NCBI GenBank assembly: GCA_029858305.1
Contig: JAOUFI010000002.1
Coordinates: forward strand, 53,369 to 117,368
From: Candidatus Thorarchaeota archaeon
Lineage (GTDB): Archaea > Asgardarchaeota > Thorarchaeia > Thorarchaeales > Thorarchaeaceae
Length of the DNA: 64,000 nucleotides
Direction of reading: 5' to 3'
In this document: positions 9,008-34,743 of the stretch, one piece after another
Numbering within the stretch: position 1 is the first letter of the stretch
Layout of the letters: every line of letters starts with the position of its first letter
Notes under the pieces: generated by a model
Told to the model about the DNA's origin: nothing
The model's input: only the letters and a program-made list of their open reading frames with translations
Databases searched by the model: none
Translations under genes and position numbers: made by a program

Positions 9008-10897
9008 TTGCTGCTAGGAGAACCTTCATCAATGAGTAGGTTTAGTGCCCTATCTATGAACCAGCTGTGGTTTGCGATAATGGTTTGCCTGATGCTGTTT
9101 ACGCCATCAGATTGCCAAGCTATTGTAAACACAGCAGAGGTAAGTATCACGTCAGAAGCCTCACAAATACCAGACCGCCGGATCTATGGAGAGAATATTG
9201 CATCAGAGGTATATGCAATTCCAACCTACACTGGATTTCAAGACCTGGTACATAAATTCACTGAGAATCATTCCAGATGGGTCATGGACCAGGCAATGGT
9301 CGATAGAGGAGCTAATATGTATGCTAGAAATTATATCGTTGAGCAGCTCAAAGATAGATCTTCGGGGCGTATTGAGGTGGAGATAATTGGTAATCACAAG
9401 AATGTAGTAGGTCGACTTCCAGGATATTTGCCAGGAGATGATAATCCAGTACTTGTAGTATCTGCCCATTATGATTCTGTAAAGGATTCAGACGGGGCTA
9501 ATGCCGATGGAAGTGGTATCGCGGTTGTCCTTGAGCTTGCATATGCAATGTCGCAATACATGTGGCCGCTGGATATCTACTTCATTGCGTTTAATGCACT
9601 CTATTCATTTCAATTCATGAGTGGTAGTCCGGAAGTAGCAAATGTGCTCCAACAAAGAGGAATTGATATTCTCGCCATGTACAATGTCGATACCATTCTA
9701 GTTACAGATTCAGCACTTCCCTCGGATGAACGAATCCAGATAGGCTATCTTTCAGGATCCGTTGAAACCTATCACCAAAGCAAATACTGGGGAGATCTAG
9801 CACGGATGATTAGCAATAACTATGGAATGAATTCATTCGTTCCGATTCCATCTGGTATATTCTACTTATGGGAAACCTCAGATCAGGAGGCATTCTATCA
9901 GCGCGGTTATAATAATATACTATGTGTCTTCGAATCAGGACTCGCAATAGATGGTAGCTATCACAATGTGAATGATCGATGGGACTATCGACAGCTAAAC
10001 TATAATCTAGGTAAGGAAACCGCAGCTGTCATTGGAGCCAGTATGGCTTTCACAATGGGTAGGAAATATGGAGAACCTGTCCAACTCAAATACAATTTTA
10101 TTATAGGTGGGGGCCGCATCGAGAAATTCTACATGGCAGTCACCACATCCACAATATTGAACATTACAGTTCGTTGGTTCGGTGGCTCAACCTCATACAA
10201 CGTGTACAATCCAAGTAATACTCTTGTAGCTAGCGCAATCTGTGATTATACTTCAGCCTGGGTTCCAACTAACATCCTGAATATACCTGTAACCGCTAAG
10301 GGTCTGTATGCTCTTGAAATTGAAAATACAAACTTTGTCAGTGTTGGTTATGAGTTGACTATTACGTATGATTCAGATATCGACGGTAACGGGATTCTGG
10401 ATAGCCAGGAATACTGGCTTGATGAGAGTCTGTTTGTGACAGACCAGGACAATGATGGTATCAGTGATGCAGAAGAGATATTCCTAGGGACAGATGGCAA
10501 TCAGGTTGATTCTGACGGCGATACGATGGATGACAAATACGAAGTTGACATGGGATTCGACCCCAATGATGCATCAGATGGAAATCTCGACGCTGACTCG
10601 GATGGACTAACAAATGCACAAGAGTACTCTGGGGGATTGAATCCGTTTTCATCTGATTCGGATGGTGACTCAATAGATGACCTATGGGAATTAGAGAATG
10701 GTCTTAATCCATTGATAGATGACGCAGCACTTGATCCTGATGGGGACGGGAGGACGAATCTTGAGGAGTATCTAGCCGGCACGAATCCGCAGATTGCAGA
10801 ATTCAGTTCACCTCCAATTCTTTTCATAGTCTCGCCAATTGCCATCGTTGCAACTATCGCAGGATTTGTTTACTTTCGAAATAGAAAATTTGTGTAG
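9008..10897 (+). CDS. Membrane-anchored M28 peptidase-like protein with TSP3-like Ca-binding repeats, predicted inactive (start probably ATG 9032)
   Basis: Signal peptide, [16 protein letters not shown] motif missing, DxDxDG repeats, C-terminal TM and basic tail. Confidence 0.8.
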
Positions 10898-10910
10898 ATA
10901 AAGAGGCGAG

Positions 10911-12728
10911 ATGATGAATAAGATTCTGTTAGGAGTGTTCATTTGTGTCTCACTTTTCTCAGCCTCATTTGGAGTTACAAGTTTTCCTCATTCTCAAAAG
11001 ACCATTGACACAGTATATACCGTTTCTGAGAACCTAGAGAGAGTCTATGGTGTTGACTACTCGAGAACCATTTTCCAAACAATTTCAGCGAATTCATTCA
11101 AAGATTATGTCATCAAGTTGACCGAGAACGGTTCTAGGTGGATTCAATCACCCACATTGATGAGCGAGGCTAATTCTGCTGCTAGGAATTGGATTGCCAA
11201 TGAGCTCATCGCAGTTTCTAACAGCAGAATAGAGGTCGAGGTTCTAGGAGAATATCATTCGGTTCTTGGGCGCCTACCTGGATACCTTCCAAACAATGCA
11301 CCCGCAATACTTGTCGGAGGTCATTATGATGGTCTCGCTGTTGGAGCTGGTGCAAATGATGATGGGAGTGGAGTAGCTGCCATCCTCGAGCTTGCTCGAG
11401 TCCTATCACAATACAACTGGCCACTTGACATTTATTTTGGAGCGTGGAATGCAGAAGAAATCGGATTATTGGGATCTGGTGAAGTAGCTCATATATTGAG
11501 CTTGAGAGGTGTTGAACTACTTGTTCACTATAATATCGATATGCTCTTGGTTCCCCATCCAGAGAGGCTATCTGTTTTAATGGCATATCCTGTTGGGTCA
11601 TATCATGATGGGAAGTATTGGGCGGATCTTCCCAGAGCATTGAGTAGCAATTATGGTCGTAATGGGATTGAACCGATAATCTCAAGTGATTTTTCTGGTT
11701 GGCAATCGTCCGACCATTGGCCATTCATCCAAAGGGGCTATCTGAGGTCTCTGTTTGCCCATGAGAGTGGATTTGCCTACGATTATGCATATCATACAAG
11801 CGGAGATGTGTGGAATAATCCACTCTATAATTATGGAGTAGCAATCGAGGGTGTAAAGGCAATCGGTGCAAGTATTGCTTTCACCATGGGAAGAGCATAC
11901 CAACAATTAATCCTTGAGAACCACAAGATAACTCTGAATCCGGGATCTCAGAAGAATTATTCAATAACTATCACAGGACAGACAATAATCAATGTTACAA
12001 GTCGATGGTGGGGTGGATCAATTTCATTCAAACTGTACAATCCGGAGAATCAACTTCTAAAAGAAGTAATACGAGATCAGACATCACCGTGGGAGATGTC
12101 AGTTGTCATTCAGCAGACTGTTAATACAGAAGGCGTTTACAAGTTGTTCGTTCTCAATCAGGGGAGTACTAGTACCGGATGTGATTTGACCTATGAATAT
12201 GACTCAGATATTGATGGAAATGATGTACCAGATAGCGAAGAGTTTTGGTTTGATGCAAGCTACTTCATGCTCGACAGTGATTTAGATACTCTCAGTGATG
12301 GGCAAGAAATGATACTCGGAACATCTTGGGTCAATGCGGATTCAGATTTTGATTCTATACCTGATAATTGGGAAATCAATTTTGGACTAAATCCACTGGA
12401 TCCCAGCGATGCATTAGGAGATGAGGATGGAGACACACTCACTAATTTGGAGGAGTATCAACATAACAGTAATCCACTTCTAGTTGATTCTGACTTCGAT
12501 CAAATGCCAGATGATTTTGAGGTTGCACACAATCTTAATCCAGCTGTCGATGATTCCCAAGAAGATCCTGATCAAGATTTAGTCTCGAATCTTGATGAAT
12601 ATCTTGAGGGGACAGATCCGCAGTATGCTGAGCTGCGCCTGGAGAGATTTGCCATACCCATCACAGGTCTTTTGATTGTGATTATCATTATAGCAGCTGG
12701 AATCGTTCTATGGAACAAGAAACGCTAG
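10911..12728 (+). CDS. Membrane-anchored M28 family peptidase with TSP3-like Ca-binding repeats
   Basis: GGHYD, GANDDGSG, AEEIGLLGS, NIDM, SDHWPF, YHTSGD all intact; DxDxD repeats; C-terminal TM. Confidence 0.9.
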   Translation: MMNKILLGVFICVSLFSASFGVTSFPHSQKTIDTVYTVSENLERVYGVDYSRTIFQTISANSFKDYVIKLTENGSRWIQSPTLMSEANSAARNWIANELIAVSNSRIEVEVLGEYHSVLGRLPGYLPNNAPAILVGGHYDGLAVGAGANDDGSGVAAILELARVLSQYNWPLDIYFGAWNAEEIGLLGSGEVAHILSLRGVELLVHYNIDMLLVPHPERLSVLMAYPVGSYHDGKYWADLPRALSSNYGRNGIEPIISSDFSGWQSSDHWPFIQRGYLRSLFAHESGFAYDYAYHTSGDVWNNPLYNYGVAIEGVKAIGASIAFTMGRAYQQLILENHKITLNPGSQKNYSITITGQTIINVTSRWWGGSISFKLYNPENQLLKEVIRDQTSPWEMSVVIQQTVNTEGVYKLFVLNQGSTSTGCDLTYEYDSDIDGNDVPDSEEFWFDASYFMLDSDLDTLSDGQEMILGTSWVNADSDFDSIPDNWEINFGLNPLDPSDALGDEDGDTLTNLEEYQHNSNPLLVDSDFDQMPDDFEVAHNLNPAVDDSQEDPDQDLVSNLDEYLEGTDPQYAELRLERFAIPITGLLIVIIIIAAGIVLWNKKR

Positions 12729-18859: not shown

Positions 18860-19384
18860 ATGGAGGAGCAATATGTGGATGAAACTGAACTGCTGAAAAA
18901 CACAATTCGGGAATGGTTCTCGCGAGAGGGCACTAAAGTTGAGAGCATCTCAGATCCAAGAGCTGCGTTTCTGTACAAAGTAAAGTTCATGCGGTTCTTC
19001 TTCACAGTTGTGCGTCCAAATGACCAGAGGTATGTTCAGGTCGAGTCCCAAATCATGATTTCTCCGCAGCATCAAAAGCTCCTGACAGCTGAGAAGCTAC
19101 GAGAGTTCCAGATGCAGGCTCTAAAGTTCAGCTTCACACAGAGTGTAAATCTAGGTTTTATTCAACCAAAGCCAGGGCAACCAGGTCCGCAGCCTCCGGG
19201 ACCGGGCTTTGTTATATCAGATAGACTCTATGATGATGCATTCTCTGAACAGAATCTTTGGAAGACCATGCGGAGGCTTCATAGTGCGATAGACATGGTC
19301 ATTGCGATCCTCAATGATATAACTGGACAACCAGGACAGAAAACAGCAGACGCCACGGATGCAGGACCATCATATTATACTTAG
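18860..19384 (+). CDS. DUF2299-like protein
   Basis: I.EWF..EG..V....P.A.F and I.ISPQHQ pattern; carries a Pro/Gly/Gln-rich insert. Confidence 0.55.
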   Translation: MEEQYVDETELLKNTIREWFSREGTKVESISDPRAAFLYKVKFMRFFFTVVRPNDQRYVQVESQIMISPQHQKLLTAEKLREFQMQALKFSFTQSVNLGFIQPKPGQPGPQPPGPGFVISDRLYDDAFSEQNLWKTMRRLHSAIDMVIAILNDITGQPGQKTADATDAGPSYYT

Positions 19385-19531
19385 AATACATTCTCGATTT
19401 ATCGACCGGATACAATCCACAGCATGTTGATATATGTAATTTACATAGAAAATTGTATAGGATGCTACAATGAAGGATAGCTCTTTTACTTGAGTTGTTT
19501 GTAGTTGACGAAAAGTAAGAGATTTTCAAAA

Positions 19532-22500
19532 ATGGGGCTTAGACGGATATTCATCATTGGTATTTTGATTCTAAGCATAGGCTTTGCTTCACACAGTACA
19601 ACAACTGATTTTTTAACATCTAATTTTGAACCTCAAGTAGCACATCCCTCTGATACTCATACATCTTCATCTGTTGAAGGAATAGGAAATAGTCTTCTTT
19701 CAGCTGCGGGATATTCCCGTAATATCAATAATTTACAATTTTCACTAGCGAACAGCTACTCAGACAGTGAGTCACATAATCAAATCATAGATTTATCATC
19801 CTACCATATTGATGGTTGGTCATTGTATGAGGTTGAAATTTCTACTACAAGAATTGTAGCATTAGCAGAACGAGAGATAATTGGATCCAGAACTAGTCCA
19901 GGTCACATCTTATTCAACATATCAAAATATGATACTGGATATTATGACCAGTTGACACAGGGATTCTATGGTATGAGTCATGATGGTAAACTAGAAAATA
20001 TCTCACTCTTGTATACTTCATCATCATATGATCCCCTGTATCATCATTATGCATATTTCGACCTTAGATCAGATTATTCAGATGGGGCTACAAATATGGT
20101 GTCCTCTGTCCCATTAGGAAATGTAGGACTTACTCCGACCTGGGCAAGTGTAACAGAATCCACAACTCTAGATGCAGACACAATATATTATGCAGTAATG
20201 AACGGGACCAGACTTATAGAGGTCTTCGGTACATTCCCAATAATTCAATGGTATTATGAGGATTCAGAAGGTACCTATGAAACGCGACGCCATACTACAG
20301 AATATATCCCCTGGAGTTCTAGTAGACCATATGAGGCTCTGCTTAACTATACTTATATTCCGTGGAATACAACAAGTAATTCTGCTCTTGAATTCTCGGA
20401 TCCATCTATCATAGATTTGCGAGGAAATTCATCATTATTGGCAGGTTCTCAATGGAAATTCGATTCTCTTACTAATGTTTCACAAATACAATTCTCATCG
20501 AATCAATCTATATCAGTAGAATACGATCTTACACTTAGATACAAGCAGTCTGTCACATCCTCCACATCTTGGTATGCAGATTCTTCTAATTCGGTCATTT
20601 TATGGAATATAACAACATCTATCGATTATCCAGAACTAGCTGGTTCTCAAGATAGAAATCTAACTGTGTTGGTTCCAAGTGACTGGACTGCAAGTCATTT
20701 ATTTAACATCACTTACCCAACTCAATATTTCGACCATTTCACACAAATAGAATCCAGCGTAAATTGCTTTGGTCTGGCGGATGAAACTTGGATATTGGAA
20801 TGTACATCTCCAAATTATATGAAATCGTTATCGATGTTTGATACGAGTGATGATAGTATTATCACTGATAAAGTAAGTATATCTGTCACAATGGATATCA
20901 ATGCAACAATTGAAGACCAATCATCAAATCCCGCAGCAAATGGTAATGCGCATCTTGTAGTGTACTATCAAGCCGCAGAAGAATATTCTGATGATTACTC
21001 AGTAACATCAGGAACATCGCATTACCAATGGGACATCTCAACAGATTCATCATCTAATGGTCTACACACGATAGATGTGTATTGGTCAAATGGAACAGAA
21101 GTAGGATATCAATCAAATGATGTTGTAGTATTCTATGAAACAACACTCGTAGCAGATGAATATACCATCAATGACTACACTGATGACTCCTTTTACATTG
21201 GAATTGACTACAACCAAGTATTTCCAGCAGCAGGGATTGACTCATCAAGTGCAGATGTCACCTATTCATTCGGATCTGTGGTGAACCAGTCTCTCACTGA
21301 CCAGAGTAATGGAAGATGGGATGCAACTGTTTCAACAGCTAGTATGTCACCAGGACTACACACATTGACTATCTATGCTGAAGGATATGCACTCGAAAAT
21401 CGGAGTATAACCATAGATGTAGATCTTATTCATGATACCTTACCCCTGACAATTATTTATTCCAACATTTCTTATGTTGAAACTACAGAGCTTTCTGTTG
21501 CATACGAAAGAGTCGGAAACATACCAATTCCTGATGCACATGTCGAAGTGACAATTGGAACAACTACATGGCAGCTAAATTTTGATGAGGGCAGCGGTAC
21601 CTACAAGATGATTTTCAATGGAACCGATATTGATCCAGGTTTTGGGATCCATACCCTCACTATTAATGCATCTCTAGCAGGGTATAAATCGCAAAGCTAT
21701 ACTAAGACACTCATTATTCATGAAGAGAGTACCATACTCAATATAGAATGGTCAGGGAGTACTGACATCACCTATGTTGAGAGCGTGACCCTCTATGTCG
21801 ACTACCAGATGTCCAATACAACTCCAATCTATCCCGCTACTGTTGAGGTCACCATTGATACTGACATCTATGTGATGAACTGGAATGGTGGAACCGGGAG
21901 ATACTGGTATCAATTCAATGGCAGTGATTTACTTCCAGGATTTGGATTTCATAATTTGATAATTAAAGCCTCTAAATTTGGATATGCCTATCGGAGTGAC
22001 CTCACACAAACACTGAATATAACTGAAGAGCCAACAACACTGGTTCTGTCTTGGTCCAATGGGAATGAAATATCATATGTGACCTCTACAATGTTGATTG
22101 CAAAATACAATCAATCAAACGGATCTCCATTAATTAATGCAACAGTTAGCGTTACAATAGATACAGAATCATGGCTAATGGTGTGGAATACTGATACATT
22201 TGCCTACGAGTTGACCTTCAATGGAACCGATTCAATACCGGGTTTTGGGACATTCGATGTATCAGTTCTTGCATCACTTTATGGTTTTGAATCAAAACCC
22301 GATGATAACGAAACACTCTATATACACGAGGAGAGCACCTTATTCAACATAGAATGGTCAGGGAGTACTAATATCACCTATGTTGAGAGTGTGACCCTCT
22401 ATATCGATTACCAAATGTCCAATGCAACTCCAATCTATCCCGCTATAGTTGAAGTCATCATTGATACCGACATCTATGTGATGAACTGGAATGGTGGAAC

Positions 22501-25500
22501 CGGGAGATACTGGTACCAATTCAATGGCAGTGATTTACTTCCAGGATTTGGATTTCATAATTTGATAATTGAAGCCTCCAAATTTGGATATCAAAATTAT
22601 TCCAATATTTTCCAGACATTGAATATTACTGAAGAACCCACAACACTTGTTTTGTCTTGGTCAAATACCAATAGCATTACCTATGTCACCTCTACAACGC
22701 TAATTGCAAAATACAATCAATCAAACGGATCTCCAGTAATTAATGCAACAGTTAGTGTTACAATAGATACAGAATCATGGCTAATGGTGTGGAATACTGA
22801 TACATTTGTGTACGAGTTGACCTTCAATGGAACTGATTCAATACCGGGTTTTGGGTCATTTAACATATCAGTAATTGCGTCATTATATGGCTTTGAATTA
22901 AAGCCCGATGACAACGAAACACTCTTTGTTGATTTAGAACCAACCTCAATCACAATCGCTTGGTCAAATACTGGAAGCATTACCTACATAGATCAAACTA
23001 CTCTCATTGTATCCTACAGAATGAACAATAATTCAGTAATTCCAATTGATGCTGTGGTTAATGTAACAATTGATGGATTTCCAACGTGGGATCTTGATTG
23101 GGATTGGGATTATGGAACTGAAACATATCGTCTTGTCTTTAATGGTACAGACATACCCCCAGGTTTCGGCACGCACAATCTAACCATTAGAATTGGTAAG
23201 TATGGCTACGTGAACCACGTGAATACCACCCTAACTCTCACTATAGATTTAGTACCAACAATCCATGAAGTATATTGGTCAAACACTAATTCCATTACAT
23301 ACATAGAATCAACAACTCTTACAGTCAATTATACAATGACCAATGGAACACCCGTTACTGATGCAATAGTGAATGTCTCAACAGTTGCGGGATTCTGGCT
23401 GATGAAGTGGAATAATGATACATTTATGTATGAGTTGGCTTTCAATGGAACCGATTCAATACCAGGATTTGGAACTCATATTCTGACCATACAAATAAGA
23501 AAGGTTGGTTATTCGGATCCTGGAAATCTCACAGAAACCTTGATTCTGGATTTGGAACCAACAAGTATGAATATGGCTTGGCTGGATTCACCAACCATCT
23601 CATTCCTCGAATCGACAACTCTTGTTGTGTACTATAGAATGAGTAATACTTCTCCGATTTTAGATGCTACAGTTATAGCTACAATCGACGGTATCCAGTA
23701 CGAACTCGTATTGCATCCAAGTGGCTCATATAGATACACCTTCAGTGGAACAGATAATCTTCCGGGAATTGGAACACATTTACTGAAAATTGATGCGAAC
23801 AGAACTGGATTTGACTCTAAATCTGATGAAGGCGAGGTCTTGATAATTAATGAAGAATCAACATTCATTGATATCATATGGTTAGATAACAATACCATAA
23901 CTTTTGTTGAAACATCAATTCTAGTCATAAATTATACAATGACTAATGGTTCTCCGATTGCAGGAGCGACAGTTAATGCCACAATAGATGGATTTCCAGC
24001 TTGGGACCTTGTATGGGATATTGATACACAAACATATCGCTTAACATTCAATGGAACAGATGTCCCGCCTGGATTGGGATTCCACAATATCACAATCAGA
24101 GCTGACAAATTCGGATACGAAAGTCGGAATGGTTTGACCAACATTACTTTAGATAGAGAACAATCATACCTCGTTGTAAGTTGGATTCCTGATAATGATA
24201 TTTCATACATGACTAGTTCTATTCTCGTGGTTAGTTATAGGATGACGAACTCTTCGCCAATTTCTGAAGCTACTGTGAATGTTTCAATTGGAGAGGGTTC
24301 ATGGCTGATGAAATGGAGTGTTGCTAATCAAGATTACAGACTTCAGATCAATGGAACCGATATACCACCTGATTTAGGAAACTATACTATGACTATTGAG
24401 GCTACAATGTTTGGATTCTATGCAGCATACAATCTAACAGCTCAGGTTATACTTCGAGAAGAACCAACAAGTCTAGATGTGCATTGGGCAAATGGAATAA
24501 ACAATCCAAGTTTCCTTTCTTACACATATCTCATAGCAGATTACCTTTATGGAGATTCAACACCTATTGTGGATGCCATTCTGAATGTCTCAATAAATTC
24601 ATTCATTTTTCGAATGGGATGGAATGCTAGTGGTTTCTATCAATTGAAAATCAATGGTTCGGACACCTATCTAGGTGTTGGGAATAATTCAATCACAATA
24701 AGTGCTGAGAAATATGGGTATGTCACTAAGATGAATACTACTAAAGTTGTGATTCCTGTGGTCCCAACCAAACTTACTCTTGAATGGGAATTCTCTGATA
24801 CGATAACCTATGTAGAATATACTACACTTCATGCATACTACGTAATGTACAATGATTCTTTGATTTCTGAAGCATCTGTCAATGTGACGATAAATGGAAT
24901 GACACTGCCTATGATTTGGAGTTCTTCTAGTAACTCATATGAACGAACATTTTACGGGTCTGACAGTTCGTTAGGTATCACATCATTTCCAATTCTAGTC
25001 GAAGCAGCCATGATTGATTTCCAGAGTCTATCAAATTCTGATGAGATATTAACTATTCAAACTGAACCTACTACACTTGCGATATCTTGGATTGGTGGAG
25101 ACAATATCACTTACTTTCAACAGACCACACTATCAGTACAATTCGTCATGTCTAATGGATCACCAATTTCAATTGGAGTTCTTAATGCGACTATAGGAGG
25201 AGTCCTTTTCGACCTTAATTGGAATATCATTAGTGAGGCATACGAAGTGGTAATCTATGGAGATGATGCCCGATTGGATTACTTGGACTATGATGTCTTG
25301 ATTAACGCATCAGCATACGGGTTTGTCGCTTCAGTAGATACTTACCAATACTTCACTATCAGACTAGAAGATACATATCTTGTCATTGATTGGGTTCCGA
25401 GTAACACGATATCTTACTTGGACTCAACAGTATTCAGAATCTTTTACCGATATGCATCCAATCATTCTCCTGTTTTAGGAGCAGTTGTTAGTGCTTCAAC

Positions 25501-28500
25501 ATGGGTAGCGAATTATAACAGCAGTTCTGGAGCTTATGAGATAATATTCACAGGCTCTGATTTTCCAACTCCAATACCGGGTACACACTCTCTTGATGTT
25601 GTTGCCTCAAAATCAAACCATCAATCTCACACTAATGATCTTGAAGAAATCACCATCACTAAGGAAAGCACATACATCGAGTCTTGGTGGCTCAATGATA
25701 ATAATACAATAACTTTCGTTGAGAATACGACTATCTATATCAACTACTCAATTGCTGCTTCAGGCGTTTCAATTGTGGATGCTAACGTTACTGTCAGAAT
25801 TGGCACAACCATATGGGATACACTCTATAATCCAATTCTGGAACTTTACTATTTCACATTTATAGGAGATATGGATCCACCAGGACTTGGTGTCCACGGG
25901 TTGTTTATTTCAGCATCTTATAGTTTTCATGAAGGATATCAATCTGCAGTAGATAACTCGCAAATCTTAGAAATTGAATCAGCATCTGTATCAATTGATA
26001 GCTATTGGATTGTTAGTGGTACTATAACATATCTACAACAGACAACACTTGTAGTAAACTATACTTTATTGGATGGAGAAGCCATTCCACTAGCACTAGT
26101 CAATGTAACAATTGGTCAAACATTCTGGTATGCACAATGGGATGAATTGAGTGAAACCTATCGGTTGACTTTCAATGGGTCAGATTCTCTACCAGGTTTG
26201 GGATTCCACGAACTCAGTATCCGGGCAAATCGAACTGGATTTGACTCACTTACTGATAGCTCTATGACTTTGAATATCATTGAAGAATCAACCACTACGA
26301 GTGTTCTTTGGAGTAATTCTGATAGCATAACATACTTTGAGCATACGTATCTATTTGTCAGGTACAGGATGAGCAATGGTTCAGACATTCTTGGTGCTAG
26401 CGTCAATGCCACAATAGGTTCTACAAAATGGATCTTAATTTGGAATAGCACGCAAGGAGCTTATGGAGTCTTATTCAAAGGATGGGATAGCCCTCCGGGA
26501 CTAGGTAGTCATTCAATCCTGATTAACGCAACAAAACATGGTTTCGCATACATTGAGAATTCAGTTGAGGTTCTGACATTACTAAAGGACCCAACTACAA
26601 TACAAGTTTCATGGTCAAATGGAAATAACATCACATATGTTGAAACTACAACGATAATTGTACAATATAAAATGAGTAACGGTACCCCAATATCCACAGG
26701 AACTGTTATTGCAACAATTGGACTAGATAGTTGGGAACTTCTGTGGAATGTATCATCACAGGTATATTACTTCACATTTTATGGGAATATGAGTCCACCA
26801 GGTCTTGATACCTTCTCAGTTCAGATTGATGCATCTAGTGCCATTTTTGCATCCCAATCGACTTCGGAATTTCTTACATTGAGAGAGGAAGGAACAGTTA
26901 CTATTGTATCATGGACGACTGCAACATTCGATTGGACCCAGAATGTTGTAATTGGAATTGAATACCGAGATAGCTATGGTAGATTGGTCAGTGACGCAAC
27001 TCAGAAGACGATATCTGTAGATGGTTCAGAATTTACCCTATCAGGGACAAATGGAACCTATTGGTATTCATTCAACAATTCATTCGGTTTAGGGCATCAC
27101 AATGTTGTCATGAATATCAGTAAGTTTGGATATGAATTTGCTGTGAATGCAACAGTTAGCTTTGATATTATTGAAGCCTCAACGAGTCTTGAACTAGTCT
27201 GGAGTATGACTACAATTGACTACTTGGGGCAGATCACTCTGACAGTAGATTACACATATACGGGTACAGGTGATTCGATTCCAGTAGGTCTAGTCAATGT
27301 GAATATCACAATTGATGGAATCACGACTCTCAATTTGACACCAATTGGAGACTATTGGACCATTACATTGAATGGAGATTTCTTAGATTTAGGAACGCAT
27401 AGTGTCGTTATACTTGCACAAGCCTATGGCTACAACTTCGCTGAGGATAGTGACAGTCTTACAGTTAATGAGGTCTCTACAGGTACATCTGGAATTTCGT
27501 GGTCACCTTCAGACCTTACAATAGAATTCACTGGTTTCTTACAACTTGTTGTGGATTATACATACGCTAGCGGAGATGTTCCAGATACAGCAACAGTGAA
27601 TGTCACGATTGATGGTCATTTCTATGAACTTGATTATCTAGTCGGTGCTTGGCGAGTGACAATTCCTGGTAGCATCCTAGGTGTTGATGTCTTTGATGCT
27701 CATATCAGTGCATGGCTCCACGGATATGAGTTACAGACCTTTACTACTTCAGGAATTAATGTCACACTTGCAGCTAATTCATTCTATGTGACTTGGGATC
27801 CATCAGATCTAACACCAACCTACATTGATACGGTAACACTTACTGTTGCCTATATACAGGACTTTGAACCAATAGAAGACGCCACTGTTCAACTATTCAT
27901 CAATGGAACTCGCTATGAGCTAATCTATAGCTCTATTGATGAGAGATGGTTCCTCAGTATTGATGCATCAGATATTGATTTGGGAGTATGGAATGTTACT
28001 GTCACAGCAAACAAAACAGGATATGCAGAAGGGTTCCAAATGGATCTCCTCACAGTAGTTGAAGCTCCAACAATTCTTGATATTCAAGATACTGGAGATA
28101 CTCTCTATTTCGATGAAACAACTACAATAGACATCTACTACCAATTAACAAATACAAGTGCAGTTCCCGGGGCAATAATATCATTCACTCTTGATGGTAT
28201 TGAACAGACAATAACTTGGAATGGTTACCATTGGACAACTACTCTCGATGGGACAGAGCTAGGAGTTGGTGTCTATACTTACAATATCATAACGTCAGTA
28301 TATGGATATGAGACTCAGATGGACACATTTGTGATTACTATACTAAGCGTCCCAACTTCAATGATATCAGATTCGAGTATTGTGATGTATGCTCGTGACT
28401 TTGTTTCATTCAGGTTTACATACATTGATGAAAGGACTAGCACCTCAATTGATGCAAGTGAATTTAACATCACATGGATCGAATACTACAACATAGTGAC

Positions 28501-29620
28501 TCTACCGAATTACACCTATATTATCACAATAGGTGGAAATGATTTCCATACAGGGAATTATACATTCGAACTCACATTAGGAAGAGTCGGATTTGATAAT
28601 AGTACAGGAGCCATATCCATCGAAGCACGACCAATACCTGTTGAATTCATAATGGAATCCACATATACTCAATATGAAAATGAAACATTAAACATAGAGT
28701 TTCAATTGATTGATACTGTGCATTCAAGTCTAATCGATTGGGGATACTTAATTGTTGAACTCGAAGGAGCTGGGTATTTAGCAATTTTTGAAAGTGTAAG
28801 TAGCTCATACATAGTGAATTTTAGATTACCAATGAATATGGATCCGGGTTCATACATACTCTATTTCTACTCGTGGACAGAAGATTGTGTTGAAATCACC
28901 GAACCTGCGTCGCTTGAGGTCCTAGCCAAGCATACATATATTCTTTCCATTGATGCGATTGATCAAATTCAATCAGGAAACGATCTAACAATTACAATCA
29001 CAGCGATGGAAGGCACAGAATTTGCTTCTGGAATCGCGCTAGATATAACAATCGTTGTCACACTAAGTCAAGGTGGTCAACAGTTCATTGTAGAACAAAC
29101 TGTAACGGATTCTAACGGACTTGCCATAATCATTTTTGAAGTGCCTGATAATGCTGTAGAATTAGAGGTTAGCGCAAGTTTTGATGGTTCTATATCAGAA
29201 TGGCCAGCATTATCATCAATTAAGAGTGTAGAAGTGACTCCTGCAGGAACAGGTGGTACCGGATTGATTATCCCAGACCCACTTGTACTTTCAATCATAT
29301 TTGGCGGGATTTCAGTTTCAATCTTAGCTTTAGCTTTCAGAAGGAAGAGAAGGGGTAGCGGAAGTGCTGTGTCAGTTTCTGTCCATTCTACTGCTCCAAT
29401 TCTACCTCCATCAAGTCCAGCAACTGGAATTCAACAGCAATTGAGAGAAGAGATTCTAAATAGTGAAGAGGGGATAACACGAGCAGAGTTATCACGGAAA
29501 CTTGGAGCCTCAGCAAGTAAGGTTGGATCGATGGTCAAAGACCTTCTTGATTCTGATTCCGGCTTTTTTGAAGTCAAAGAAGGTGCTAAGAAACTAATCA
29601 AGTTCAAAAAATCAGGTTGA
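19532..29620 (+). CDS. Giant surface protein: signal peptide, head region, about 27 Ig-like repeats, TM helix, cytoplasmic winged helix-turn-helix
   Basis: ATG 19532 precedes a hydrophobic signal (ORF track starts at 19505); about 100-aa beta-rich repeats; TM at about 29278-29338 followed by RRKRR; GITRAELSRKLGAS.SKV HTH. Confidence 0.85.
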   Translation: MGLRRIFIIGILILSIGFASHSTTTDFLTSNFEPQVAHPSDTHTSSSVEGIGNSLLSAAGYSRNINNLQFSLANSYSDSESHNQIIDLSSYHIDGWSLYEVEISTTRIVALAEREIIGSRTSPGHILFNISKYDTGYYDQLTQGFYGMSHDGKLENISLLYTSSSYDPLYHHYAYFDLRSDYSDGATNMVSSVPLGNVGLTPTWASVTESTTLDADTIYYAVMNGTRLIEVFGTFPIIQWYYEDSEGTYETRRHTTEYIPWSSSRPYEALLNYTYIPWNTTSNSALEFSDPSIIDLRGNSSLLAGSQWKFDSLTNVSQIQFSSNQSISVEYDLTLRYKQSVTSSTSWYADSSNSVILWNITTSIDYPELAGSQDRNLTVLVPSDWTASHLFNITYPTQYFDHFTQIESSVNCFGLADETWILECTSPNYMKSLSMFDTSDDSIITDKVSISVTMDINATIEDQSSNPAANGNAHLVVYYQAAEEYSDDYSVTSGTSHYQWDISTDSSSNGLHTIDVYWSNGTEVGYQSNDVVVFYETTLVADEYTINDYTDDSFYIGIDYNQVFPAAGIDSSSADVTYSFGSVVNQSLTDQSNGRWDATVSTASMSPGLHTLTIYAEGYALENRSITIDVDLIHDTLPLTIIYSNISYVETTELSVAYERVGNIPIPDAHVEVTIGTTTWQLNFDEGSGTYKMIFNGTDIDPGFGIHTLTINASLAGYKSQSYTKTLIIHEESTILNIEWSGSTDITYVESVTLYVDYQMSNTTPIYPATVEVTIDTDIYVMNWNGGTGRYWYQFNGSDLLPGFGFHNLIIKASKFGYAYRSDLTQTLNITEEPTTLVLSWSNGNEISYVTSTMLIAKYNQSNGSPLINATVSVTIDTESWLMVWNTDTFAYELTFNGTDSIPGFGTFDVSVLASLYGFESKPDDNETLYIHEESTLFNIEWSGSTNITYVESVTLYIDYQMSNATPIYPAIVEVIIDTDIYVMNWNGGTGRYWYQFNGSDLLPGFGFHNLIIEASKFGYQNYSNIFQTLNITEEPTTLVLSWSNTNSITYVTSTTLIAKYNQSNGSPVINATVSVTIDTESWLMVWNTDTFVYELTFNGTDSIPGFGSFNISVIASLYGFELKPDDNETLFVDLEPTSITIAWSNTGSITYIDQTTLIVSYRMNNNSVIPIDAVVNVTIDGFPTWDLDWDWDYGTETYRLVFNGTDIPPGFGTHNLTIRIGKYGYVNHVNTTLTLTIDLVPTIHEVYWSNTNSITYIESTTLTVNYTMTNGTPVTDAIVNVSTVAGFWLMKWNNDTFMYELAFNGTDSIPGFGTHILTIQIRKVGYSDPGNLTETLILDLEPTSMNMAWLDSPTISFLESTTLVVYYRMSNTSPILDATVIATIDGIQYELVLHPSGSYRYTFSGTDNLPGIGTHLLKIDANRTGFDSKSDEGEVLIINEESTFIDIIWLDNNTITFVETSILVINYTMTNGSPIAGATVNATIDGFPAWDLVWDIDTQTYRLTFNGTDVPPGLGFHNITIRADKFGYESRNGLTNITLDREQSYLVVSWIPDNDISYMTSSILVVSYRMTNSSPISEATVNVSIGEGSWLMKWSVANQDYRLQINGTDIPPDLGNYTMTIEATMFGFYAAYNLTAQVILREEPTSLDVHWANGINNPSFLSYTYLIADYLYGDSTPIVDAILNVSINSFIFRMGWNASGFYQLKINGSDTYLGVGNNSITISAEKYGYVTKMNTTKVVIPVVPTKLTLEWEFSDTITYVEYTTLHAYYVMYNDSLISEASVNVTINGMTLPMIWSSSSNSYERTFYGSDSSLGITSFPILVEAAMIDFQSLSNSDEILTIQTEPTTLAISWIGGDNITYFQQTTLSVQFVMSNGSPISIGVLNATIGGVLFDLNWNIISEAYEVVIYGDDARLDYLDYDVLINASAYGFVASVDTYQYFTIRLEDTYLVIDWVPSNTISYLDSTVFRIFYRYASNHSPVLGAVVSASTWVANYNSSSGAYEIIFTGSDFPTPIPGTHSLDVVASKSNHQSHTNDLEEITITKESTYIESWWLNDNNTITFVENTTIYINYSIAASGVSIVDANVTVRIGTTIWDTLYNPILELYYFTFIGDMDPPGLGVHGLFISASYSFHEGYQSAVDNSQILEIESASVSIDSYWIVSGTITYLQQTTLVVNYTLLDGEAIPLALVNVTIGQTFWYAQWDELSETYRLTFNGSDSLPGLGFHELSIRANRTGFDSLTDSSMTLNIIEESTTTSVLWSNSDSITYFEHTYLFVRYRMSNGSDILGASVNATIGSTKWILIWNSTQGAYGVLFKGWDSPPGLGSHSILINATKHGFAYIENSVEVLTLLKDPTTIQVSWSNGNNITYVETTTIIVQYKMSNGTPISTGTVIATIGLDSWELLWNVSSQVYYFTFYGNMSPPGLDTFSVQIDASSAIFASQSTSEFLTLREEGTVTIVSWTTATFDWTQNVVIGIEYRDSYGRLVSDATQKTISVDGSEFTLSGTNGTYWYSFNNSFGLGHHNVVMNISKFGYEFAVNATVSFDIIEASTSLELVWSMTTIDYLGQITLTVDYTYTGTGDSIPVGLVNVNITIDGITTLNLTPIGDYWTITLNGDFLDLGTHSVVILAQAYGYNFAEDSDSLTVNEVSTGTSGISWSPSDLTIEFTGFLQLVVDYTYASGDVPDTATVNVTIDGHFYELDYLVGAWRVTIPGSILGVDVFDAHISAWLHGYELQTFTTSGINVTLAANSFYVTWDPSDLTPTYIDTVTLTVAYIQDFEPIEDATVQLFINGTRYELIYSSIDERWFLSIDASDIDLGVWNVTVTANKTGYAEGFQMDLLTVVEAPTILDIQDTGDTLYFDETTTIDIYYQLTNTSAVPGAIISFTLDGIEQTITWNGYHWTTTLDGTELGVGVYTYNIITSVYGYETQMDTFVITILSVPTSMISDSSIVMYARDFVSFRFTYIDERTSTSIDASEFNITWIEYYNIVTLPNYTYIITIGGNDFHTGNYTFELTLGRVGFDNSTGAISIEARPIPVEFIMESTYTQYENETLNIEFQLIDTVHSSLIDWGYLIVELEGAGYLAIFESVSSSYIVNFRLPMNMDPGSYILYFYSWTEDCVEITEPASLEVLAKHTYILSIDAIDQIQSGNDLTITITAMEGTEFASGIALDITIVVTLSQGGQQFIVEQTVTDSNGLAIIIFEVPDNAVELEVSASFDGSISEWPALSSIKSVEVTPAGTGGTGLIIPDPLVLSIIFGGISVSILALAFRRKRRGSGSAVSVSVHSTAPILPPSSPATGIQQQLREEILNSEEGITRAELSRKLGASASKVGSMVKDLLDSDSGFFEVKEGAKKLIKFKKSG
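21719..22930 (+). repeat. Recent intragenic tandem duplication, 606-bp unit x2
   Basis: 21719-22324 and 22325-22930 share long identical nucleotide stretches (e.g. atagaatggtcagggagtact; gacatctatgtgatgaactggaatggtggaaccgggagatactgg). Confidence 0.9.
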
Positions 29621-29818: not shown

Positions 29819-32800
29819 ATGAGAAAAGCAATAATATCGGTCATCCTGATAATTACAATCCTGAGTGTACCATCGGTCGGAACTGACTCAAAATTACTAA
29901 ATTCTTCCCAAACCAATGATATTGATCAAATCGGGTTTCAAGATTCATTACTTTCTGAAATAATTCAATCCGGAAGTACCTTACCAATATTACAAAAGAT
30001 GAACAGATCATTTTCCGACCAACTTACAGTGCTAGCTAATAGCTATGCATCTCCAGATGCTCACGCCAATACTATTGATCTTGTTTCATATCAGATACCT
30101 GGATGGACATTAAATAGAGTAATAATTGACACTCATAACATAACAGCCATTTGTGAAAGAGAATTAGTTGGGACAAGTGCCACACCTTCACAATCATCAA
30201 GCTTTGAAATATACGAACCACCATTGACACCTGATGAATATATCCCGGAACTAGCTCAAGGATTTTATAATATCACTCACGATGGACAACTGCAGAACAT
30301 TTCACTACTCTATAGGTCTCTATATGATCCATCAACTCAAAATTATGCCTATTTTGACATTAGATCAGACTATCAAGATGGCAGTACAAATATGGTTTCT
30401 TCGGTTCCGCTGGGAAATGTAGGACTTACTCAGACTTGGGCTAGCATTACAGAAACAGTTGTTCTTGACGCAAATACAGTATACTATGCTGTTATGAATG
30501 GAACAAAGTTACTTGATGTCGGTACCTATCCTCAAATCTGGTGGCTCTATGAGAATGGTTATGGTGATTTTCTAACTACTCGATACGCTACTGAATTCAG
30601 TGCCTGGAGCTCTAATTTACCCTATGAAGCGATTTTGAATTATACCTATATTCCATGGAATACAACCTCGAATTCTGCCCTTCTATTCTCAGATCCAACT
30701 TCAATAGACACTCAGCTGAATGGAAATCCTGTGTCAGGTACTACTTGGACTGTTACTTCAGTCACCAATATCACATCTATCTCAATGACTACCAATCAAT
30801 CTGCCAATGTTTACTATGATTTGATTTTGTGTTATGAAACAAATAATATTGGATATACTGAATGGAAAGGTCAGTCATCTAGTAATGTAATCATGTGGAA
30901 TGTCACAGCTGATATCACATTCCCTACTGCATCTAATATTGTTAGTCGAACAATGGACATTACGAATATTCCATTAGACTGGAATGCAACTGGTCTGTAC
31001 CTAGCCACCACTCCATCAGGTTCATACGTCAAATCAGGAACAACTGTGACTTGCTCGACCTTGAGTGATGGGACTTGGACACTGACTGTAACAGCACCAA
31101 ACTACGTACTGGGTCTTGCCCTATCAGATTCATCAAACAGTTTGCCAATAATTCACAAAGTGGCTAACAATGTAATTGTGGATATCGATGCTACCATTGC
31201 ATCGGATGGAGGTACTACCAATCTCTCGGTATTGCAAACCAGTACACTCATCTATTCTCCAACAGAGATTCCAGCATCTTCAGGAGCTGCAGCTTTTTCA
31301 TGGAATATTAGTGCAACAACAACTGGAAATGGCACCCATTCTGTAGAAGTCTTTTGGTTATCAACTGATGAACTCGAAGCAGGATACCGAACACAGGAAG
31401 TCTTTGTCTTTCATTCCACAACACTCCTTGCAGATGATTATTTCATAAATGCATTCACAGATGATAGTTTTAGCATTGGGATCGACTTCAATCAATTTTA
31501 TCCTGCGAAGAGCTTAGATGCGCCCGTAGCAAATGTTACCTACTCCTTTGAGAGCGTTATAAATCAAACAATGAATAATCCGGGAGGAGGTCGATGGACA
31601 GCACTCGTGGACACGACTGGTATGAGTAGTGGTATCCGTACTCTCACCGTTTATGCAACAGGATATGCCTTGGAAAACCGTAGTATTGAGATATCAGTGA
31701 ATCTTGTTCATGCAACTTCTCCTCTTATTTGTAGCCTCACACCAGATTATAACATCACATATTTGGAGAGTACAAATCTCACCGTATCGTACAAACAACT
31801 CAATGGAACGAATATTCCTTGGGCAACAGTCAACGTCACCTTTGATGGTTCTACATATGGTATGGTATGGAATCAAATTGCAGAAGTATATTGGATTCAG
31901 CTTAATGGATCTGATTTCGTCACTATTCCAGGCAACACCACACTCACAGTCAATGCCTGGAAATTGGGTTACGAACCGCAATATAACGATTCAACTGAAA
32001 TCACGATTTCTGCTGAAACAGGAGTCTATTTCGATGTCGTCTGGAATCCAATAGACCGAAACATCACATACATCGAGCAAATCACCATCACTGTGAACTA
32101 CACATTCAACTCAATTCCGATAGATAACACTTGGGAAGGAGTATGGGTGAGAGTAACATTTGTTGGCTATCCATACGTGAATCTCACCTATAACCCAGTT
32201 TTGGAGATTTGGCAAGTCACCCTTGATGGAAGTGATTATCTGGGCACAACCATTGTAACAGTTAGAGCGAGTGCTACAGGCTATAGTCCTGTTCAGAATG
32301 TATTCGACATGATAGTGATGGAAGATGCTTCATCGCTCAGTGGTTCATGGACTGCAAATTCATATACGACTAACTACGCGACAGGCGCTCCGCTAACTAT
32401 TATTGTTCAAGACTCGATTGGTTCTGCAATAAATGATGCCAATTTGACCGTCACAGTGAATGGAATTGTTACTAATTATGTACCTGGTGAATACAGTATC
32501 ATCATAGCACCACCTCAAACGGCGGGAATCTATAGTGTTAATGTGACAATGATCAGGTATGGATACACTACCACTACCATATTTCTATCTTTGACAGTAC
32601 TTGCTACAACTGAGCTCGACATAATCGTTTATGACAGTGAATATGAACAGTGGAACTTGAATGTCACTGTAACGTATTCAGACCTTCTCTATACAACTCC
32701 TATAACTGGAGCAACTGTGATTGTGACCCTAAATGGGGAGGACTACACACTGCAATACTCAGCAGGAGTCTACACAATCGAAATCCTCCTTGATGTTGTT

Positions 32801-34360
32801 CCAGGGTCGTATACCATGAGCTTTAATGCAAACGCACCACTAGCAGATCCGCAAACTGCTTCTCGAGAACTGACTGTAATAGCAAAACGTGCAGTCCATC
32901 TTGAGCTAACATATGAAGGTAATCCAAGCTTAGAGGGGCAACTAGTATCTCTAATAGCTACGCTACTTTACAATGGCACAGATCAAGCTGTCATTGGCGA
33001 ACTTGTCCATTTTGTTGTTACTATCACTTTTGCGAATGGAACAGTTCAGATAATGGATAGCACCAATCAAAATGATACTACCAATACAGGTGGAGTTGCG
33101 CAATGGAGTTTCTATGTACCTGGTGGGAATATTGAGTCTATCGAGGCAGAAGCGCATTATTATGGCAGTCGTGTAATCTGGGATGCGCAGAAGACAATTA
33201 CAGTTGGAGGAACCAGTCCAATTATAGCTGTCCTGTTCTTCTTCTTTGGAACACCAATGGGACAACTTATCGTCGGTTCCATTGCTCTCGTTGGGATTGT
33301 CACTACTGCCTACAATCGCCGCGTCAAACCAAAGAAGAGAGCTGCGATGACATCTCTTGAAAACCAACTACAGATGTTCATCGACTTGGAATCTCTCCGT
33401 CACTTTATGGCAGTCTATCTTGACCGAGGAACATGTGTCTTCTATCATCCATTTACGGATGAGAGAATTCAACCAGACCTCATCAGCGGATTCATAGCAG
33501 CCATTACCAGTGTGTATGGCGAAATCAAGGGTGATGGTGTGCGTGGCACACTTGAGGAGATTCAATACCACGGTCTCAGACTGAATAGTTATAGCGGCGA
33601 TAAAATCATCGGCATCCTCATACTTGAAGGAGAGATGACACCACTTCTCAAAGACAGGCTTCAATTCTTCGTTGAACTCTTCGAGAATCAATACGAGAAA
33701 GATCTTGATGGCTGGTCAGGACTTGTTGATTGCTTTGACTCAGAGTGGATAGTTTCAACCTTGAACTCTGCATTCAATTATGCTTGGCTTCTCCCACATC
33801 GATTTGGGCCCACACAGAAGGTGTCGAAAACAGATGCTAGGATACTCGACTACATTGCAGCAGTTCGCGATGAGCGAGGAGAATTTTACATAAGGAAACT
33901 GATTTCACCACTCTCAGAGATGCTAGAATTGACAGAAGCACAGATATTAGATCGCCTTCTCACACTTCAAGAAAGAGGAGCAATTGTACCAGTTGGTGTG
34001 CAAACAGTTCTTCAACGCCAAGGAATGGGCTTATCAGATGGGCATGAGGGAGAGGATGTCAAAACAATTGAGTTACTTCCTCCATCAGAGATCAGTAAGG
34101 AATTAGAAGAAGAACCTGAACCTATTCGAACAGAAGAACCAACTGCAGCGCCTGAGGAACCCGTCGAAAAACCCACTCCAGAACCAAAAGAAAAGCGAAA
34201 ATCAAAACTAAAAGTGATGGCTGAAGAACCTACTCCAGAGCCTGAACCAGAGGTGAAGGAAGAGATTGATCCGATGGAAGCTTTCATCATGGATGTAGAG
34301 TCCCTTTTAGCTGCAAAAGAGAAGAAAGAATCAGAAACTAAAAAGGATGAGGAAGAATAA
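29819..34360 (+). CDS. Surface protein: same head as upstream gene, about 6-7 Ig-like repeats, TM, cytoplasmic longin-like domain, winged helix and acidic tail
   Basis: Shared YAYFD.RSDY.DG.TNMVSSVPLGNVGLT segment; TM about 33217-33313; GTCVFYHPF....PDLISGFIAAITS..GEI longin-type motif. Confidence 0.85.
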   Translation: MRKAIISVILIITILSVPSVGTDSKLLNSSQTNDIDQIGFQDSLLSEIIQSGSTLPILQKMNRSFSDQLTVLANSYASPDAHANTIDLVSYQIPGWTLNRVIIDTHNITAICERELVGTSATPSQSSSFEIYEPPLTPDEYIPELAQGFYNITHDGQLQNISLLYRSLYDPSTQNYAYFDIRSDYQDGSTNMVSSVPLGNVGLTQTWASITETVVLDANTVYYAVMNGTKLLDVGTYPQIWWLYENGYGDFLTTRYATEFSAWSSNLPYEAILNYTYIPWNTTSNSALLFSDPTSIDTQLNGNPVSGTTWTVTSVTNITSISMTTNQSANVYYDLILCYETNNIGYTEWKGQSSSNVIMWNVTADITFPTASNIVSRTMDITNIPLDWNATGLYLATTPSGSYVKSGTTVTCSTLSDGTWTLTVTAPNYVLGLALSDSSNSLPIIHKVANNVIVDIDATIASDGGTTNLSVLQTSTLIYSPTEIPASSGAAAFSWNISATTTGNGTHSVEVFWLSTDELEAGYRTQEVFVFHSTTLLADDYFINAFTDDSFSIGIDFNQFYPAKSLDAPVANVTYSFESVINQTMNNPGGGRWTALVDTTGMSSGIRTLTVYATGYALENRSIEISVNLVHATSPLICSLTPDYNITYLESTNLTVSYKQLNGTNIPWATVNVTFDGSTYGMVWNQIAEVYWIQLNGSDFVTIPGNTTLTVNAWKLGYEPQYNDSTEITISAETGVYFDVVWNPIDRNITYIEQITITVNYTFNSIPIDNTWEGVWVRVTFVGYPYVNLTYNPVLEIWQVTLDGSDYLGTTIVTVRASATGYSPVQNVFDMIVMEDASSLSGSWTANSYTTNYATGAPLTIIVQDSIGSAINDANLTVTVNGIVTNYVPGEYSIIIAPPQTAGIYSVNVTMIRYGYTTTTIFLSLTVLATTELDIIVYDSEYEQWNLNVTVTYSDLLYTTPITGATVIVTLNGEDYTLQYSAGVYTIEILLDVVPGSYTMSFNANAPLADPQTASRELTVIAKRAVHLELTYEGNPSLEGQLVSLIATLLYNGTDQAVIGELVHFVVTITFANGTVQIMDSTNQNDTTNTGGVAQWSFYVPGGNIESIEAEAHYYGSRVIWDAQKTITVGGTSPIIAVLFFFFGTPMGQLIVGSIALVGIVTTAYNRRVKPKKRAAMTSLENQLQMFIDLESLRHFMAVYLDRGTCVFYHPFTDERIQPDLISGFIAAITSVYGEIKGDGVRGTLEEIQYHGLRLNSYSGDKIIGILILEGEMTPLLKDRLQFFVELFENQYEKDLDGWSGLVDCFDSEWIVSTLNSAFNYAWLLPHRFGPTQKVSKTDARILDYIAAVRDERGEFYIRKLISPLSEMLELTEAQILDRLLTLQERGAIVPVGVQTVLQRQGMGLSDGHEGEDVKTIELLPPSEISKELEEEPEPIRTEEPTAAPEEPVEKPTPEPKEKRKSKLKVMAEEPTPEPEPEVKEEIDPMEAFIMDVESLLAAKEKKESETKKDEEE

Positions 34361-34422
34361 ATCCCGAACAAGCAAAGAACACTTATGTACCCTACAGATT
34401 GCAGGAAGGGCGGGGCGACGCT

Positions 34423-34743
34423 ATGGTTTGGAATATCGAGAATTACTATATCATCGATGAAAGAATCCTCAGGGTTGAGATCTCAGTTCCTTTGCTGGAG
34501 TTCCTATATATCAGAATAGATGATGTGAAGCAGGCGTGGCTAGATATGTTGAGTCAGGTTGTTTCTGAACAACCGGGCTTTGATGTATCATGGGAGATGC
34601 AACCCCGACAGGATCAGGCCGTTGTTACAATTCAAATAGCGAAACCTGGAAATCTTGGTGAGTTTACCAGAGAAGAGACAAACGGAGCAATTGATGCGGT
34701 AGATGCATTATTTGATGACAAGAAAGACTCTATCGATTTTTAA
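34423..34743 (+). CDS. Hypothetical protein
   Basis: ORF fills gap; ATG 34423 (track start 34399); no motif. Confidence 0.55.
   Translation: MVWNIENYYIIDERILRVEISVPLLEFLYIRIDDVKQAWLDMLSQVVSEQPGFDVSWEMQPRQDQAVVTIQIAKPGNLGEFTREETNGAIDAVDALFDDKKDSIDF

Follow-up and report, generated by a model that had tools for sequence, protein, structure and literature searches.

In bacteria, the single-pass regulators ToxR and CadC join an extracytoplasmic sensor to a cytoplasmic winged helix that acts at the membrane without being released; their winged helix-turn-helix (wHTH) domain is N-terminal, of the OmpR/PhoB type, and set in an N-in topology. Notch of eukaryotes, a topological analogy only, is a type-I receptor whose very long ectodomain is modular and whose effector is intracellular and C-terminal. 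Bacterial fibrillar adhesins such as SiiE and the Lig proteins combine a head and a long stalk of tandem immunoglobulin (Ig)-like domains with an anchor to the cell, and have no folded cytoplasmic domain. In archaea, ArnR and ArnR1 of Sulfolobus acidocaldarius are membrane-bound helix-turn-helix (HTH) one-component regulators controlling surface structures (PMC6396743). ArnR consists of an N-terminal HTH, a HAMP-like and a sensing domain and two C-terminal transmembrane helices, all facing the cytoplasm, without a large ectodomain. Here we describe a giant surface protein encoded on a 64,000-nucleotide stretch of DNA (the window; contig JAOUFI010000002.1 of a Candidatus Thorarchaeota archaeon), whose C-terminal tail, behind a single transmembrane helix, is predicted to fold as a winged helix. 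What appears to be new is that a giant type-I surface protein, part of a conserved two-receptor cassette, has a regulator-type winged helix as its C-terminal module in the cytoplasm; a literature search over main texts returned no description of the family or of the architecture.

The open reading frame (ORF) of the giant protein covers 10.1 kb of the forward strand and is laid out as follows (aa, amino acids):

19505..29620, + strand: giant surface-protein gene, 3,371 aa counted from TTG 19505 or 3,362 aa from ATG 19532
19538..19597, + strand: putative N-terminal signal peptide or anchor, LRRIFIIGILILSIGFASHS, residues 12-31, read from the sequence
19685..21424, + strand: head region of about 600-650 aa, common to the downstream paralogue (BLASTP)
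21425..28870, + strand: stalk of ~100-aa tandem repeats (jackhmmer, one repeat against the whole protein)
28871..29278, + strand: membrane-proximal ectodomain with the conserved motif SISEWPA at 29189-29212 (8-orthologue alignment)
29279..29338, + strand: single transmembrane helix PLVLSIIFGGISVSILALAF, residues 3259-3278, rich in Gly and small residues (sequence and alignments)
29339..29353, + strand: polybasic stop-transfer motif RRKRR (RRRRR or RRKRR in 8/8 orthologues)
29354..29425, + strand: Ser/Pro/Ala/Val linker of 24 aa, poorly conserved in sequence and constant in length
29426..29605, + strand: winged-helix domain of 60 aa, with H1 at 29426-29461, H2 at 29480-29503, H3 at 29513-29554 and the beta-hairpin wing at 29564-29605

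The tail stretch from LREEILNSEEGITRAELSRKLGASASKVGSMVKDLL to EVKEGAKKLIKF finishes 4 residues ahead of the stop codon (29618-29620). The transmembrane helix with its GG, the RRKRR motif, the Ser/Pro linker and the tail that a preliminary description of this DNA had pointed out are all present in the sequence; the feature start that it gave, 29278, is corrected to 29279, where the reading frame begins.

AlphaFold2, run on the tail with a 15-member alignment, returned a model with a mean predicted local distance difference test (pLDDT) score of 85.9 and a predicted TM-score (pTM) of 0.68. In tail numbering, the model has a helix at residues 9-20, a short strand, helices at 27-34 and 38-51, and a hairpin of strands 55-60 and 63-68, which is the winged-helix order H1-(b1)-H2-turn-H3-b2-wing-b3 within about 60-70 residues; the last linker residues have a pLDDT below 50. 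The 60-aa domain has nothing beyond the wing, and H1 is preceded by no more than a disordered linker. Foldseek against the PDB returned winged-helix domains only, with TM-scores of 0.6-0.78, and nothing at E<=1e-3; the best match, at 2.4e-3, is the winged helix of RPC39, and the model has a generic winged-helix fold. A second structure search, independent of Foldseek, spanned 48,161 chains. We regard the winged-helix fold of the predicted model as certain. The preliminary description had read the tail as a wHTH domain, and both this H-(b)-H-H-b-b model and the profile match that follows bear it out.

The 72-aa tail matches Pfam HTH_24 (PF13412) at E 1.7e-4, and the score falls with longer queries, to 20.4 bits for 113 aa and 14.5 bits for the whole protein. 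HTH_24 is the closest sequence family, but membership was rejected, as 21.5 bits for the 72-aa query lie below the gathering cut-off of 21.9. MarR_2, TrmB and RPA_C are weaker matches of the tail, and a Pfam scan of 15 family members at E<=0.1 found HTH_24 in 10, MarR_2 in five and RPA_C in four. SloR, of the DtxR family, is matched at E 2.4e-4, and only its DNA-binding wHTH part aligns (residues 6-50). The small wHTH families as a group (HTH_24/Lrp-AsnC N-domain, MarR, ArsR/SmtB, DtxR/SloR N-domain) are matched below Pfam cut-offs and, unlike these regulators, the tail has no dimerisation or ligand parts and is covalently anchored to a membrane protein; assignment as a MarR/ArsR/DtxR-type regulator was rejected, the flanking dimerisation helices and the ligand or metal domain being absent. 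Look-alikes in the Protein Atlas, taken as leads only, were DUF1627 (0.93), EutK_C/FaeA (0.90) and MarR_2 (0.90). Judged by sequence, the nearest relatives of the tail are regulator-type wHTH domains, and the tail fits no curated family.

A size-restricted protein search gave eight proteins including that of the window, and the seven orthologues (2,147-3,476 aa) share 45-64% identity across the last 192 residues. The transmembrane helix, the Arg-rich stretch, the linker and the tail are kept in all seven, so that the tail passes the check on conservation in orthologues that the preliminary description had set. Among the four full-length orthologues, tail identity is 73.5% vs 58% for the whole protein, and only 2.8% of the 68-aa segments of the giant protein match the conservation of the tail. 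phmmer, run exhaustively over 1.84 billion representatives, returned 36 matches at E<=1e-3; 29 of these are proteins or fragments of 67-3,362 aa that have the domain at their extreme C-terminus, and the other seven are unrelated proteins with an internal domain match.

A profile of the tail built from six sequences and applied to 400 genomes of the phylum matched 25 of them, once each. All 25 belong to the window's own Thorarchaeota family (24 of 85 genomes plus the window's genome); by genus the counts are 15/27 in g1, 3/7 in g9, 2/2 in g11 and 4/17 in g12, and the same scan found no tail in the 314 genomes of 32 other families of the phylum. Fragmented assembly of a 10-kb repeat-rich gene may be the cause where the tail is missing from genomes of the same genus. 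Thorarchaeota have a lineage-specific family of giant type-I surface proteins with Ig repeats, and the tail is its unvarying C-terminal module; in sequences that are long enough to tell, it is C-terminal in every case. Since its range is limited to one Thorarchaeota family, the giant protein is not the ancestor of the eukaryotic Notch system, with which it has no homology.

Two relatives of the tail occur in other settings. In the same genome as the window, the sole other weak relative (E 0.004) is a 124-aa protein (locus L007, 1318-1692, + strand, contig C159) with a coiled-coil-like N-terminus and a winged helix with a similar basic wing (…KYRDGRKIRFRS). A soluble protein of ~200 aa (locus L024 of genome G349, and protein P0034) has an N-terminal CxxC region and a C-terminal winged helix of the tail family, so that within the same genus the tail-type winged helix is found away from the membrane too.

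Residue counts taken from 51 non-identical tails, in tail numbering, are:

G24, before H2: 51/51
R27, start of H2: 50/51
S37, H3: 48/51
S39, H3: 39/51
K/R40, H3: 50/51
G42, H3: 39/51
K/R46, H3: 48/51
D52, after H3: 44/51
E57, wing: 47/51
K/R59, wing: 45/51
G61, wing turn: 50/51
K/R64, wing: 47/51
K/R67, wing: 50/51

In wHTH-DNA complexes the DNA is touched by the start of H2, the first half of H3 and the basic wing, and when placed on the predicted fold the near-invariant exposed residues of the tail sit on these canonical contact elements. The mean net charge of the tail core is +2.8 (range -1 to +7 over the 51 tails). Spacing was counted on the 42 tails whose sequence includes the transmembrane helix: in 35 of them, 24-37 residues separate the end of that helix from the start of H1, and in the other seven, 92-197. 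These seven long-spacer forms have additional cytoplasmic domains. In the giant protein of genus g12, a cytoplasmic alpha/beta domain immediately precedes the tail-type winged helix, and this domain is a homologue of the one on the cytoplasmic side of the window paralogue (24% identity over 128 aa, E 2e-11); in g11 an alpha/beta domain is followed by an apparent second winged helix, seen by eye, and then by the tail-type winged helix.

The remainder of the protein is consistent with a type-I protein that displays a fibre outside the cell. Its start codon is ambiguous from the sequence, TTG 19505 vs ATG 19532, the latter being the start in the database copy P0004. The stalk has 23 strong repeats across residues 641-2942 (domain E 1e-22 to 5e-44, jackhmmer) and two weaker ones at residues 2956-3122, which makes ~25 in total; the whole protein has 108 N-X-S/T sequons and three cysteines. 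The SISEWPA motif recurs across the wider family, and the transmembrane helix, with GG in the window protein, has GGGGG in other subfamilies. We infer a type-I topology with a cytoplasmic tail from the signal peptide, the polybasic stretch and the sequon-rich ectodomain, the tail being placed in the cytoplasm because RRKRR fits the positive-inside rule. A head, a tandem-repeat stalk and a C-terminal transmembrane anchor make the protein fibrillar adhesin-like, adhesion itself being putative; unlike in the bacterial adhesins, the transmembrane helix is followed by a conserved winged helix. An archaeosortase-type C-terminal sorting signal (PGF-CTERM and kin) was considered and rejected, the transmembrane helix being trailed by 93 residues; NCBIfam gave no match on the last 163 aa, and archaeosortase PF09721 had no match in the genome in a search whose control was positive in only 1 of 14 genomes.

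With its winged-helix tail, the giant protein may connect the cell surface directly with the inside of the cell. Our tentative preference, held at somewhat less than an even chance, is that the tail is the membrane-tethered nucleic-acid-binding output module of a transmembrane one-component system. Something extracellular would be bound by the head, which sits on a stalk of ~25 modules; the ectodomain and the Gly-rich transmembrane helix would then pair or cluster and bring two or more tails together, the Gly-rich helices and the shared head supplying the pairing that a lone winged helix needs. Still tethered, at a distance of ~28-30 residues from the membrane, the tails would contact nucleic acid, with DNA as the likeliest target, using the N-terminal end of H2, the front half of H3 and the basic wing. 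We favour this reading because the sequence affinities of the tail point to DNA-binding regulator families and because the conserved face and the basic wing match DNA-contact elements. Also in its favour are the purifying selection on the tail and its fixed spacing to the membrane, the alpha/beta domain followed by a winged helix in other genera, which is the layout of one-component regulators, and the archaeal membrane-bound HTH precedents ArnR and ArnR1 (PMC6396743). The one-component contact or force sensor of the preliminary description gains some support from the regulator-family affinities and the residues on the DNA face, and its function stays at the level of a proposal.

Several points weigh against a tethered nucleic-acid-binding output. 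The Pfam matches of the window tail, and of the one family member with a bit score given, lie under curated cut-offs, and additional helices for dimerisation are absent from the tail. Small residues (S-A-S-K-x-G) make up the exposed side of H3, where long polar side chains are few; a helix that reads bases usually presents longer polar ones. A structural surface protein may be too abundant for a specific regulator, and the basic wing could bind acidic lipids instead. A search for a conserved palindromic operator, both upstream of the giant gene and in the gap between it and the paralogue, came back empty; three loci had no conserved inverted repeat between the two genes, and an imperfect inverted repeat of 10 nt where the giant ORF begins was seen in the window only. 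The only thing that seven upstream regions have in common is a promoter-like element. This non-palindromic element, …AGCTC-N3-4-CTTTTCAAA…, precedes the ATG of the giant gene by about 60-90 bp in most loci; in the window, where it is diverged, it is found at about 19455-19490, and it also occurs at loci L005 and L039-L042.

By its way of working, the tail would most resemble the DNA-binding end of ToxR/CadC or ArnR, while standing outside those families, as the type of winged helix, its position and the topology differ. In the giant protein the winged helix comes last, at the C-terminus, behind a signal peptide and 3,250 aa of ectodomain; ToxR and CadC bind DNA while membrane-bound, and the DNA binding of the tail is putative. 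Membership in a ToxR/CadC-like family was rejected, as Pfam Trans_reg_C had no match in the tail or the 15 members and the topology is reversed. No sequence relation to ArnR/ArnR1 was seen.

The giant gene stands in a conserved cassette, whose other members in the window are:

18860..19384, + strand: DUF2299 protein of 174 aa, the conserved left neighbour (Pfam DUF2299, E 2.7e-13)
29819..34360, + strand: downstream paralogue of 1,513 aa, with the same head and a much shorter stalk
33221-33313, + strand: transmembrane region of the paralogue
about 33356-33748, + strand: highly conserved cytoplasmic alpha/beta domain of the paralogue, of no Pfam family
about 33827-34015, + strand: the paralogue's own winged helix, followed by an acidic Pro/Glu-rich tail
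34399..34743, + strand: conserved small ORF of 114 aa, of no family, which closes the three-gene cassette (identity to same-place ORFs)

From the sequences compared, the cassette consists of the DUF2299 gene upstream, the giant gene and its paralogue, and an ORF of ~115-124 aa downstream. The C-terminal peptide GPSYYT, followed by the stop, precedes the giant gene in 7/7 loci, and the 114-aa ORF has 64-77% identity to ORFs at the same place in two other Thorarchaeota (L004, 7801-8163; L005, 14876-15238), with a 124-aa ORF at the matching place in a further locus (L038, 7266-7640). The first 660 residues of the paralogue correspond to the head of the giant protein, at 45% identity over 659 aa (E 0.0, BLASTP). 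Its cytoplasmic region of ~230 residues is nearly invariant in three orthologues and is present in 74 of 86 genomes and in all 16 genera of the family. In an AlphaFold2 model of this region the winged helix has a pLDDT of 82-91 and the alpha/beta part is below 50; by the order of its secondary structure the alpha/beta domain looks roadblock- or longin-like, with the fold prediction at that low pLDDT. Soluble paralogues of the region, of 215-250 aa, also occur; those at L035 485-1132 (-), L036 421-1107 (-) and L037 298-1023 (+) have 215-241 aa, and neither three soluble paralogues nor the alpha/beta domain matched a Pfam family. Some database fragments of the cytoplasmic region are automatically named "Lrp family regulator". 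A profile-profile comparison of the tail family with the cytoplasmic region gave a probability of 0.2 and no relation, with shallow profiles of six and three sequences. Adjacency could be judged in 15 of the 25 genomes with a tail, the other 10 having the two partners on different contigs or one of them missing; in all 15 the tail and the cytoplasmic region of the paralogue lie on one contig and the same strand, 3.6-4.7 kb apart. These data are compatible with a wider and somewhat unlikely picture, in which two paired receptors would share one type of ligand-binding head, carried by a long stalk in the one and by a short stalk in the other, and would each be wired to a different winged-helix output; the giant one would turn surface contact or tension directly into DNA binding by a membrane-held tail, as a Notch- or ToxR-like device built independently from a regulator-type wHTH.

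This pairing bears also on a near-equal rival of tethered nucleic-acid binding, itself a real possibility though again with the balance against it: the winged helix may be a protein-protein adaptor that docks the giant protein to a cytoplasmic partner, such as the alpha/beta domain of the paralogue, ESCRT or the cytoskeleton, and so anchors or clusters the fibre or relays a signal without DNA. A paralogue with a nearly invariant cytoplasmic domain adjoins the tail gene wherever this could be assessed, the fusion of a paralogue-type domain upstream of the tail-type winged helix in g12 is a Rosetta-stone-like hint of cooperation, and the small, uncharged conserved surface of H3 would suit a protein partner. 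Winged-helix domains are also frequent in archaeal ESCRT systems, according to PMC11188069. The conserved charged residues, however, lie on the classical nucleic-acid face, and no partner was found. Neither ESCRT-II nor another protein-binding winged-helix family had a Pfam match at E<=0.1 in the 15 members; ESCRT-II ranks 40th by fold, with a root-mean-square deviation of 5.1 Å, and has its winged helices as a tandem pair where the tail has a single one, so that membership with ESCRT-II (Vps22/25/36) was rejected, and no sequence match to the ESCRT-II/CdvB winged helices was found. The ESCRT partner that the preliminary description had offered as an alternative thus gained no specific support. 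A third account, which we consider improbable, sees in the tail a basic plug with a passive topogenic or structural role, which would hold the C-terminus inside and adhere to acidic lipids without a specific ligand. The polybasic stretch with the basic wing, the fixed short distance to the membrane and the fact that neither partner nor operator was found are all compatible with such a plug, but it would not need the near-invariant non-basic surface residues G24, S37, S39, G42, D52, E57 and G61, nor conservation of the tail above most of the ectodomain, and ordinary archaeal C-terminal anchors stop a few residues past the transmembrane helix.

Release of the tail, which the preliminary description had proposed along Notch/SREBP lines as one way of working, now appears highly improbable. 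In such a scheme ligand or force would trigger cleavage in or near the transmembrane helix, and the freed winged helix would diffuse to the chromosome. The type-I topology with a C-terminal cytoplasmic effector, as in Notch, is in keeping with it, as are the helix-destabilising Gly of the transmembrane helix, joined by Pro in most orthologues, and the long disordered linker, which could be cut by soluble proteases. A Notch-type substrate of regulated intramembrane proteolysis, however, calls for a protease in the same organism that cuts type-I helices, and none was detected in the genome of the window, which is 88.9% complete. Rhomboid PF01694 gave no match there, and in the genus two of 28 genomes had borderline matches (21.8-22.5 bits), the same search being positive in 14/14 control genomes; the SPP-type protease PF06550 had no match in the genome, and PF04258 had none in 28 genomes, where the control was silent as well. 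The only intramembrane proteases found are two M50/S2P enzymes, and S2P cleaves helices of the orientation opposite to type-I. The constant short spacing to the membrane is, moreover, better explained by tethered action. As an observation in its own right, this Thorarchaeota genus apparently has almost no canonical rhomboids.

One question studied in Asgard archaea is how their cells sense partners and make contact with them, and transmembrane signalling there is almost uncharted. The locus offers a defined, conserved and testable candidate, a giant fibre-like protein whose only cytoplasmic part is a 60-residue winged helix of regulator type. If the tail binds DNA, it would represent a new membrane-tethered architecture of gene control, in which a type-I protein joins a sensor the size of an adhesin to a DNA-binding domain at its C-terminus; if its ligand is a protein, the tail would mark an anchoring or signalling hub beneath the Thorarchaeota surface. 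In either case, the domain families concerned are without a curated model.

Two further sets of genes in the window may be recorded. A third giant surface protein of 2,501 aa (48228-55733, + strand) has FG-GAP repeats and several Ig-like domains (Invasin_D3 at E 5.6e-15, Big_1 at E 7e-10); it ends in a multi-helix hydrophobic C-terminal region with an acidic tail, without the winged-helix tail of the family studied here. At 9008-12728 on the + strand lie two adjacent paralogous M28-peptidase genes, which encode proteins of 629 and 605 aa.

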